Shown piece after piece: positions 23,001-29,225 of a stretch of DNA of 64,000 nt; the stretch's first letter is position 1; each line of letters starts with the position of its first letter. The stretch is from Microbotryum violaceum (taxonomy: Eukaryota): NCBI GenBank assembly GCA_001244265.2, contig LN717261.1, forward strand, positions 2,991,591-3,055,590. Direction: 5' to 3'. The position numbers and the translations under genes were made by a program. The notes below the pieces were generated by a model, which did not search any database, had not been told where the DNA came from, and was given only the letters and a program-made list of their open reading frames with translations.

Positions 23001-24557
23001 TTCGCCAAGATGACTCCTTGATAGGTGATCGTCATGACATCCTTGCCATCTTCCCATCCGCACTTGGCTCCCGATTTGAATAGAGCTCGAGTCGAGATGA
23101 GGTTCACGGGCGCACCCGGGAGATGATACACGTTCGCAAGTGAGAGCGATGCCCCACTCTTCAACTTGAAACGTACCATCCCATACGTATCGCAGTGTAC
23201 TACCTGTCCGCTCGCTGTCTGAACCTTCAGGTTTCCACTTTGACGATTGGAGAGCAGACTGGCGTCTCCAACATAGTGCTGGCTAGCACCTGTGTCCAGT
23301 ATCCAGATCTCACCCTGGTTAAGCTGCGACACCCTATTCGCGACATTGTCTTGAAGCGAATAGCTCTCATCGAGAGACTTGACCGTCAACGCAAATTTAG
23401 CCAACTCGTTCGAATCCGCAGATTCCTTCGAGTCCTGCTTCTTTTTTTTGTGGCGGTTGCGCGCACGACCGTGGTTCTTCTTGGCGTCGTACTTGGGACA
23501 TTCAGGGTCCATCGCGAAATGACCCTTCCCCTTGCATCCCCTACAGACACAGTTCGGGTCACGACTTGCTTGCGTGCTTTGAACGGCTAACGCTCCCGCG
23601 TTCTTCAAGAGTTTGTCGAACTTGCCCAACAACTTCCGTTCCGTGTACTCGTCTGTAAGGCGATTGATGACATGGTCGACCGATCGATTTTCACCGAGGC
23701 GAATTGCTTGCTTCAGCATCTCGTACGACGGGGGTAATGCTTGGAGGATGTACGCGATCATCGCCTCGTCCCCAAACTTCTGACCGAGATCGTCGAGTTG
23801 ATCCGCCTTGTCGATCATGCTCTTCAAGAACTCGCCCATATTCTCGTCTTCGTCGTACTTCGCATTCGAGAGTTCCATCAACAACGTTCGAATCTTGAAA
23901 GGCTTGGCATTCCCTTCATGATGCTGGCGAAGCTTATCCCAGATATCCTTGGCGGAGAGCGTCTTGCTCTTGACCATCTTGAGATTCGCATCGTCGATAC
24001 ATTGAATGATCAGGGCACGGGCGCTTCTGTCCTTCTTCTGCAAGTTCACGACCACTTGGGTGTCGGTGACCGAGGCATCCAGACCGTGCATGGTCCTCCA
24101 CTCAGCCAGGCTGACGTCGGAGGGCCGCACATGCCCATGCTCGAGGACGCTCGCATAGCCCTTGCTCTCGAGGTACGCCTCGACTCGAATTGACCACAGC
24201 TCGTAATTATCCTTGCCGAGCTTGGCTATCTTGATCTCCCCAGACTCCTGAGCAATGGTCTCTGATGGACTCATAACCTGTTGTTGTAGGAGCATCTCTA
24301 GTTACGTGGCGTCGATAGATGACCTATTGTGAGATAGTGGGTCGCTAAAGGTCAATCGACTGTAACAGAGCGACTAGGCGAGATGTGATATCGAGTGCGT
24401 GGTGGAGAAGAGAGAAAAACAGCTAGGCCAAAAAGACGCAATCTCATGTAAACAACCAGCCGCCTCTGCCGGTCCCCGCACAACACCCGCGCGCGCCGCG
24501 CCACTGCTAAGACCATAAGTCCCTCTGGACCGCAGACCCCACTAATTTCCCACAACA
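20038..24557 (-). mobile_element. Ty1/Copia LTR retrotransposon, twin 1 (full length, TSD GCCTC)
   Basis: LTRs at 24279-24557 and 20038-20315 (TG..CA), PBS GGTTATGAGTCC, purine tract AGTGGGAG. 5-bp TSD GCCTC at 20033-20037 and 24558-24562. Confidence 0.97.
20300..24274 (-). CDS. Copia Gag-Pol polyprotein, twin 1
   Basis: Uninterrupted ORF: Gag knuckle [16 protein letters not shown], protease WILDTGAS, integrase [32 protein letters not shown], RNase H YSDASW/ADILTK. Likely start is the ATG at 24274; the ORF-track start lies inside the LTR. Confidence 0.95.
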
Positions 24558-24707
24558 GCCTCATGGCAATACACAGCCTGGCGATCACGTCGGTGAGTTC
24601 AAATAGGATATTGAAGCTCCTGCATGCTCTATTGTCCTATGGAGCTCTGCTCTTCTCCTCCTCATGTCCCTTGTTGTTTCGGAATGACTCACCCCTGATC
24701 TCATTGT
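24558..24707 (+). other. 150-bp spacer between the twins; continuation of the MULE-Ulp1 locus
   Basis: Removing twin 1 and one TSD restores the frame IDSRKP-HGNTQPGDHV, followed by a GTGAGT donor. Confidence 0.7.
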
Positions 24708-27700: not shown

Positions 27701-29225
27701 CGCCCAGGGACTGTTTCTCGAGCAGTTTGACTTCGACTCTGCGTTTCTGAATGGAACGATGACGGAGATGGTCTATATGAAGTATCCCAAGGGTTGGGAT
27801 CGCCCTCAAACCGGCCAAGCCCTCCGTCTTGTAAAGTCGATGTACGGCACAAAGCAAGCTCCTCGAGAATGGAACGCAGCTGTGAACTCCCTGATGGTCG
27901 AGCGCGGCTACAAGAGATCTGATGCTGACTCCTGCCTTTACGTCAAGCGAGTAGATGAGAAGTTTATCTACATCACGCTGTACGTGGACGACGGCATGGT
28001 TGCTTCGAACGACCAAGAATTCCTGGATTCGGAGATCGAAGCGTTTAACAAAGTCTACAAGCTCAAGCGCCTCGGTCCAGTGAAGCTCTTCTTGGGTCTC
28101 GAATTCGAGCGTACATCAGATTACATCTTCGTGCATCAGTCCAAGTACATCAGGGATCTCGTTGCCATGTATGGAGGAGGTTCAGTATCCAAGCACCCGG
28201 TGAAAGTCCCCATGGAGCCAAGGTCGGACGTCGAACATTCTACGGATCCTTTCGACGACGTGGCTCTGTACCAGTCAGCAGTGGGAGCGCTGCAGTATGC
28301 TGCGCATCGAGCTCGACCCGATGTCGTCACTTCGGTTCGTGCGGCAGCGTCCAAGGTTTCGGCTCCTACCCAGGCCAACTGGATCGCGGTGAAGCGGATC
28401 ATCCGCTACTTGCAAGGCACTGTTGACTGGGGACTGAAGTTCAACCACGGAGGATCTACGGTATTCGAGCTTTACTCCGATGCCTCGTGGGGAGACGACA
28501 TGTCGACTGGGAAGTCGATTGGAGCGTTCGTCTCGATTTTGGCAGGTGCTGCGATCTCTTGGCAAAGCAAACAGCAGTCGATGGTTGCAACTTCGACTAC
28601 GGAGGCTGAGATTTTGGCGGCTTCCGCGGCAGCAAAGGAGGCCATGTGGCTTCGGCGATTGGCGGCGGATCTCGAGCTAGAACAACCTAAGGCTACACTG
28701 ATCTGGGAGGACAACCAAGCGGTGATCGCGATCGCTCTCAACCCGGCTCATCACGGAAGGACAAAGCACTACAATGTGCATCACTTTTACATCCGAGAAC
28801 GAGTTACGGCTGGCGATATTCGAATCAAGTATTGCAAGACAGGAGCGATGACTGCGGATATTCTTACAAAGCCGCTCGCTCGCAACTTGTTCGAACTTCA
28901 TCGTGAGGGTATGGGAATGGTGTCCCTTGGAGCCTTGACCAGTGGGAGTGTTGTGGGAAATTAGTGGGGTCTGCGGTCCAGAGGGACTTATGGTCTTAGC
29001 AGTGGCGCGGCGCGCGGGTGTTGTGCGGGGACCGGCAGAGGCGGCTGGTTGTTTACATGAGATTGCGTCTTTTTGGCCTAGCTGTTTTTCTCTCTTCTCC
29101 ACCACGCACTCGATATCACATCTCGCCTAGTCGCTCTGTTACAGTCGATTGACCTTTAGCGACCCACTATCTCACAATAGGTCATCTATCGACGTCACGT
29201 AACTAGAGACGCTCCTACAATAACA
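24708..29225 (+). mobile_element. Ty1/Copia LTR retrotransposon, twin 2 (full length, no TSD)
   Basis: LTRs at 24708-24985 and 28949-29225, PBS at 24986-24997. Flanks ATTGT/TGAAC do not match. Confidence 0.97.
24990..28964 (+). CDS. Copia Gag-Pol polyprotein, twin 2
   Basis: Same translation as twin 1 apart from VERF>VEHF in integrase, the only difference I noticed. Confidence 0.95.

Follow-up and report, generated by a model that had tools for sequence, protein, structure and literature searches.

The shared LTR asymmetry of twin copia elements

In the standard model of reverse transcription, as given in PMC6894440, a change ends up in both LTRs of a new copy. Two neighbouring copia elements of Microbotryum violaceum therefore raise the question of how the same differences between 5' and 3' LTR came to be present in both. 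The elements, twins A and B, lie in a stretch of 64,000 nucleotides on contig C1 (LN717261.1, forward-strand positions 2,991,591 to 3,055,590), here called the window; coordinates given with no contig name refer to it.

20038-24557, minus strand: twin A, copia element
24708-29225, plus strand: twin B, copia element, back to back with A
20038..20315, minus strand: 3' LTR of A, T-C-T type, 220T
24279..24557, minus strand: 5' LTR of A, C-T-C type, equal in substitutions to the 5' LTRs of B and of a third copy, D, save position 7
24708-24985, plus strand: 5' LTR of B, 0 substitutions against the 5' LTR of D (C1:2971615-2971891)
28949..29225, plus strand: 3' LTR of B, T-C-T type, presumably derived from another insertion, B0
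24955, 24970, 24981, plus strand: diagnostic sites in the 5' LTR of B (LTR positions 248/263/274)
29195, 29210, 29221, plus strand: diagnostic sites in the 3' LTR of B (LTR positions 248/263/274)
24705..24720, plus strand: aberrant left terminus, confined to the 5' LTRs of B and D, with 3 extra bases and 7A
20033..20037, plus strand: TSD GCCTC on the 3' side of A, single in 5/5 intact host-repeat copies

Over 4520 bp, only 3 substitutions and 2 one-base indels separate the twins (99.889% identity). At LTR positions 248/263/274, each twin has C/T/C in its 5' LTR and T/C/T in its 3' LTR, and comparison of the LTRs thus confirms the three common differences on which the initial annotation was built. 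The C-T-C type is found in 3 of the 69 family 5' LTRs examined, those of A, B and D, so the shared asymmetry is not a product of chance. The 5' LTR of B additionally differs at LTR position 7 and carries the 3 extra terminal bases, while the 3' LTR of A differs at position 220; the four LTR differences of A all fall in the 3' 60 bases of the LTR. The left terminus of the B and D 5' LTRs mirrors the right end of a C-type LTR as a perfect inverted repeat over 13 nt and looks like a terminal template switch. In D, the 3 extra bases sit within the intact TSD.

The target sites set the copies apart. A is flanked by a perfect 5-bp GCCTC and D by CTCAT, each single in empty sites, whereas B carries CTCAT on its left and TGAAC on its right and hence does not have the TSD of one insertion.

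Coding capacity and genomic context

20300..24295, minus strand: gag-pol ORF of A, 1331 aa, with a 150-bp in-frame integrase deletion
24969..28964, plus strand: gag-pol ORF of B, 1331 aa, with gag, protease-like, rve, SH3 and RVT_2 regions
24986..24997, plus strand: putative PBS-like site GGTTATGAGTCC, directly after the 5' LTR of B
28938..28948, plus strand: purine-rich tract ahead of the 3' LTR of B
26395..26410, plus strand: deletion junction exclusive to A, B and D, where 150 bp of the integrase N-terminal region are missing between 7-nt direct repeats

The B protein follows the Ty1/copia domain order, consisting of Retrotran_gag_2, Pol_BBD, rve, SH3_retrovirus and RVT_2 (Pfam), and towards its C-terminus it shares 99% identity with copia polyproteins of Microbotryum. 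The LTRs have TG...CA ends, and the 3' one is preceded by a purine tract. Owing to the 150-bp in-frame deletion, the element does not have the complete integrase N-terminal region of an autonomous copy; PF13976 is missing from the B protein and found in close relatives. A pattern search for a tRNA matching the PBS-like site gave 0 matches, and tRNA-Met was absent from the 30 of 49 tRNA loci inspected. Half-tRNA-iMet priming would be one candidate mode for the family. In the first 32 internal bases, 4 of 71 family copies have another leader past the PBS and 1 is intermediate, which suggests exchange with a related family. ARAGORN reports tRNA-like genes with anticodon TTA ('Stop') at C2:1219088 and C4:2870915.

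Other repeats surround the twins. A related copia element at 35810-40782 on the minus strand (79% identity) has LTRs of ~340 bp with 5 differences in 274 bp, and its 3' LTR is broken by a 117-bp TG...CA insert (36084-36200). A 2-kb inverted repeat of 95% identity occupies window positions 11710-13776 and 46928-49000; by eye, the overlapping ORFs look Helitron-like. Elsewhere in the genome, C2:3809925-3863953 holds a tandem array of ~4016-bp units, each with a family LTR, together with two full elements that have the same flanks.

Empty sites resolve three insertions and one rearrangement

C1:2967375-2971891, minus strand: third copy D, CTCAT on both sides (TSD assigned by hand), 40 kb from B
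24558..24704, plus strand: spacer, 147 bp, from another repeat family (21 matches), with A's GCCTC at its start and D's CTCAT at its end
C1:2971895-2972041: second, identical spacer copy
C1:2972121-2972246: LTR remnant, 126 bp
29226..29230, plus strand: orphan TSD half TGAAC, whose partner flanks the 126-bp LTR remnant ~49 kb to the left
1..20037, no strand: right half of segment S (whole S 39.4-kb, C1:2972247-3011627), in reverse orientation compared to the ancestral order as reconstructed

Copy D shares the aberrant left terminus with B, lies beside an identical copy of the 147-bp spacer and contains a one-base frameshift-type gap. Past the D-side spacer follow 80 bp of LTR start, a fold-back join, 126 bp of reversed LTR start and the outer flank TGAAC. 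Within these 126 bp, the fold-back join is accompanied by 4 one-base indels and a 15-bp duplication.

The flanks of A, B and D are fragments of two other repeat families, so that empty sites could be sought in other copies of these repeats. The 3' flank of A, the spacer and the 3' flank of D are contiguous in 5/5 intact host-repeat copies, with a single GCCTC and a single CTCAT, 2 of the 5 matching just 35 bp beyond CTCAT. Likewise, the flank of the remnant and the 3' flank of B are contiguous in 4/4 copies of the second family, with a single TGAAC. Because contiguity holds in all of these copies, the ancestral order is Y-D-spacer-A0-S(reversed)-B0-Z. It contains three integrase-type insertions, namely D (CTCAT), A0 (GCCTC) and B0 (TGAAC). 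A0 and D stand back to back at a distance of 147 bp, and B0 follows 39 kb further on.

Compared to this order, the assembly has S inverted and the spacer duplicated, and B is composed of the 5' end of D and the 3' end of B0. The 5' flank, 5' LTR and 5' interior of B are those of D, and its 3' flank is that of B0; the two LTRs of B consequently come from different insertions. Orphan TSD halves that match distant flanks, with a rearranged segment between them, are thus present, as expected of ectopic recombination or conversion between repeats. In contrast, the clean reciprocal product of a single crossover is not seen, as D is whole and is followed by the duplicated spacer and the fold-back join.

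Two numerical coincidences were considered and set aside. The deletion and the spacer both measure 150 bp when the spacer is counted with the 3 extra bases of B, but the spacer derives from a different repeat family, which makes the match coincidental. A nucleosome reading of the 147-bp spacing found no support.

Copies A, B and D form one local lineage

28323..28397, plus strand: five-site tract in which A equals B and both differ from D, with two alleles private to A and B

The 150-bp integrase deletion is confined to A, B and D, which all lie within 50 kb, and three private SNPs are common to these copies alone. Between the 5' LTRs of D and B there are 0 substitutions, and that of A differs at position 7 alone. 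The interior is a patchwork: B equals D at internal site 1881 and equals A from 2828 on. Tracts of identity between neighbours that include rare alleles and are bounded by family-level divergence, as expected of gene conversion, occur in the family. Both LTRs of D have the C-C-C background with private changes. Judged from these sequences, 263T looks like a CpG change that arose in the 5' LTR of D and was then copied at the DNA level, since retrotransposition would place it in both LTRs.

LTR discordance across the family

The genome holds 189 motif-matching LTR ends, and pairing of 5' with 3' ends gave 69 elements for which both LTRs could be analysed. A TSD is present in 43 of these and missing from 26, of which at least 2 deviate from a TSD at a single base. 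Left out were 2/87 and 9/87 matches, 11 5' ends that had no partner, 3 C5 pairings that were redundant and 2 elements without a findable 5' start, and three more full copies exist outside the 69-pair count. Fully identical LTR pairs number 8/69.

The initial annotation had proposed this tabulation on the premise that asymmetry in many independent TSD-bearing copies would indicate an unusual replication route. Discordance at one or more of the three sites is indeed present in 13/43 independent copies with a TSD (17/26 without), but it runs in both directions and so does not point to such a route. Counted as 5'/3' over the 69 pairs, site 248 is C/T in 11 and T/C in 10, site 274 is C/T in 7 and T/C in 12, and site 263 is T/C in 3 (A, B and D) and C/T in 2. 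The T-C-T type makes up 30/69 of the 5' LTRs and 30/71 of the 3' LTRs. The directional asymmetry expected of a non-standard strand transfer is therefore absent family-wide at the three sites in these pairs. Discordance is also not confined to R-U5: scaled by heterozygosity in copies with a TSD, it amounts to 0.31 at markers 87/88 and 0.33 at 248 and 274, which argues against a route limited to the 3' part of the LTR, given U3/R/U5 borders that are themselves inferred.

A 97-bp unit (LTR positions ~152-248) is present in 1-3 copies per family LTR, in one register, GTTAGT...AG. Compared with the 3' LTR of the same element, the 5' LTR is richer in units in 11 copies with a TSD and poorer in 2 (nominal p=0.022); for elements without a TSD, the counts are 4 and 8.

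Neighbouring copies resemble each other on the mating-type chromosomes

The window lies on C1. Contigs C1 and C2 are treated here as the two mating-type chromosomes, because each carries one STE3 pheromone-receptor gene and because one element, flanked identically, is found close to the left end of both. On C1/C2, the TSD is kept in 25/48 copies, compared to 18/21 elsewhere (p=0.014). Copies with a TSD but zero LTR substitutions number 4/25 on C1/C2 and 12/18 off them (p=0.001). The mean number of LTR substitutions in copies with a TSD is 3.5 on C1/C2 and 0.7 on the others, a five-fold difference (p=0.0002); C2_604811, an alignment artefact, was excluded from these substitution counts. By comparison, the median internal distance of these copies to distant copies, a blunt proxy of age, is 44.5 versus 41.5 (p=0.22). 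We estimate that the LTR excess, were it due to age, would add ~20 internal changes per copy. Haplotype-marker discordance alone is seen in 11/25 copies with a TSD on C1/C2 and in 3/18 on the others (p=0.10).

Proximity goes along with similarity. Pairs less than 50 kb apart differ at no more than 15 sites in 14/25 cases, compared to 0/461 of the farther pairs on the same contig, and the neighbour within 50 kb is the closest relative in 18 of the 21 C1/C2 copies that have one, a count reached in 0/2000 permutations. In the pair C2:2511186/2525542, the TSDs are swapped reciprocally and the initial 3.1 kb contain 1 difference. C2:494507, which has a TSD, agrees with its neighbour in 5' LTR type and at 29 rare alleles as far as position 3174, beyond which 23 sites differ; with its LTR pair C-C-C/T-C-T, it is an independent analogue of A. 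A common 5' part and a different 3' part occur in 5/8 neighbour pairs, too few for significance.

A different kind of cluster is found at C16:699108-740369, where five near-identical sisters lie within ~40 kb of the contig end. Each sister has a separate TSD, one of them sits inside another, and the four aligned show 0-3 internal differences. The cluster suggests clustered insertion, and since each sister has its own TSD, similarity of neighbours can also come about in this way. In two of the sisters, the element's own LTRs differ in unit number or haplotype, and the very young C16:740092 is discordant from position 152 onward only.

Origin of the asymmetry and alternative explanations

We consider it highly probable that ectopic crossover and long conversion tracts between neighbours, both after insertion, gave rise to the asymmetry shared by the twins. 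A crossover or template switch between the inverted D and B0 would have generated B together with the inversion of S. Conversion tracts of several kilobases among D, A0 and B would then have carried the deletion, the private SNPs and the 5' LTR with 263T from D into A, which would have retained its own ends and its T-C-T 3' LTR. In what order, and from which copy to which, these conversions would have run in A is inferred. A likely driver would be the repair of breaks by way of repeats lying close together, on a mating-type chromosome lacking a collinear partner. The reconstruction, the shared tracts and the swapped TSDs all support DNA-level copying, gene conversion or ectopic recombination, as had been put forward at the outset. 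The asymmetry is accordingly no sign of unusual replication; it is an ordinary product of repeat-mediated rearrangement, a known process. One weakness of the crossover explanation is that the simple reciprocal product is absent on the left side, by D.

An assembly chimera is an unlikely alternative. The true structure would then be a palindrome D-spacer-A, with B an assembler join of the 5' part of D to the 3' part of B0. The fold-back beside D would be the end of a contig that was collapsed or left unpolished, and an assembly collapse may have occurred at this join. The 126-bp remnant is error-rich and D has its frameshift-type gap, but short duplications at error-prone joins are also a feature of real template switching. 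Similar fold-back jumbles of LTR and PBS pieces occur at C2:2717135-2717700 and C5:131932-132762, and C15:216615-222944 is an inverted duplication with one common flank on both arms; all three reflect either real palindrome collapse or assembly artefact. The fold-back join is bridged in 0/4 public contig sets, taken from 24 listed sets that may stem from other strains (best word share 0.68); a gap in contigs proves nothing. The junction at the A site has an exact 72-base match in 1/4 sets, with 30 LTR-side bases, one below the bridging rule. If the assembly was made from long reads, as we assume, reads should cross an intact 4.5-kb B0. Furthermore, arms A and B keep distinct real family alleles (7G/A, 1881G/A, 220T/C), which counts against a chimera and makes simple cross-polishing of the arms, another suggestion of the initial annotation, unlikely as well. 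A chimera would, moreover, still require conversion to explain A.

For A taken alone, local retrotransposition with a non-standard transfer yields the same sequence. A would have been born discordant from a mixed particle, with its 5' end from D RNA and its 3' LTR from a T-C-T helper RNA, either by a minus strand run on to the RNA 5' end or by intermolecular plus-strand transfer, and would then have inserted next to D. The intact TSD of A and its four LTR differences within 60 bases agree with this, as do the 5/8 polarity of neighbour pairs, the greater unit number of the 5' LTR among copies with a TSD (11:2, against 4:8 without), the fresh, clustered sisters on C16, and C16:740092 with its discordance from 152 on. 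We nevertheless regard it as very unlikely. The three sites show no direction, discordance at 87/88 is close to that at 248 and 274, zero-substitution pairs prevail off C1/C2, and the absent TSD of B is left unexplained; in addition, recombinant new Ty1 and ONSEN copies end with identical LTRs (PMC6894440). Atypical strand transfer, which the initial annotation had allowed for, is disfavoured by the same pattern: discordance runs both ways, is equal near the two LTR ends and is concentrated on C1/C2. A related idea, which we rate as decidedly unlikely, is that the family makes TSD-bearing copies beside an existing copy, the 5' LTR and ~3 kb being templated by the neighbour (nascent RNA or DNA) and the 3' part by the RNA of another member. 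If true, LTRs would differ at birth and daughters would land beside their parent, uniting the position of A beside D, the polarity, the unit excess and the C16 cluster. That the same three sites mutated independently in each twin, by recurrent CpG or RIP-like C-to-T changes, is hardly credible. Site 263 is a CpG, and C>T accounts for 258/453 internal singletons; sites 248 and 274 are not CpG but linked family haplotype markers, for which this explanation is refuted, and the twins also share the deletion and private SNPs. It plausibly fits the first origin of 263T in the 5' LTR of D only. Singletons are spread evenly over the element, at 46-62 per 500 bp, so 3'-biased cDNA conversion is unsupported.

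Implications and comparison with known systems

LTR-based ages on C1/C2 may be inflated. For specialists, what matters is the five-fold higher divergence of LTR pairs in TSD-bearing copies on these chromosomes, which no matching internal rise accompanies, together with overwriting of neighbours at the kilobase scale. Should other families behave in the same way, LTR-based ages on non-recombining chromosomes would be inflated, and one published 'TE reservoir' argument in Microbotryum (PMC10502011) would be weakened. TSD pairing and internal tracts make age inflation directly testable. A limited literature search found no report of this locus and no paper closely matching local hopping or neighbour conversion of this sort.

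In yeast, Ty1 undergoes non-allelic recombination and gene conversion, and dispersed near-identical copies mediate inversions and rearrangements (PMC3102749). The present locus resembles that system in its near-identical copia copies, its inversions and rearrangements and its hybrid elements. Unlike in the yeast work, the events are traced here by orphan TSD halves in a natural genome, the conversion of A left its TSD in place, and a duplicated spacer and a fold-back join are present (PMC3102749). Recombination during reverse transcription of ONSEN and Ty1 gives mosaics with identical LTRs (PMC5668417, PMC6894440). Mosaic copies from several family haplotypes are common to both cases; in contrast to the identical LTRs and TSD of that route, B has neither.

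In plants, conversion distorts dating by LTR divergence (Jedlicka et al. 2020, PMC7251063), and as in that case, conversion here would decouple LTR divergence from age. The plant case concerns converted regions within LTR pairs, whereas here exchange between different neighbours raises divergence, mostly on the mating-type chromosomes. Duhamel et al. 2023 (PMC10502011) describe copia bursts on Microbotryum mating-type chromosomes, with young and numerous copies, and find copies in non-recombining regions to be older by LTR divergence. By another test, they found conversion in Microbotryum to be rare and without compartment bias. Our copies come from the same genus and are likewise young and numerous copia elements; unlike in that study, TSD logic and internal tracts indicate frequent exchange between neighbours on C1/C2, in one family only (PMC10502011).
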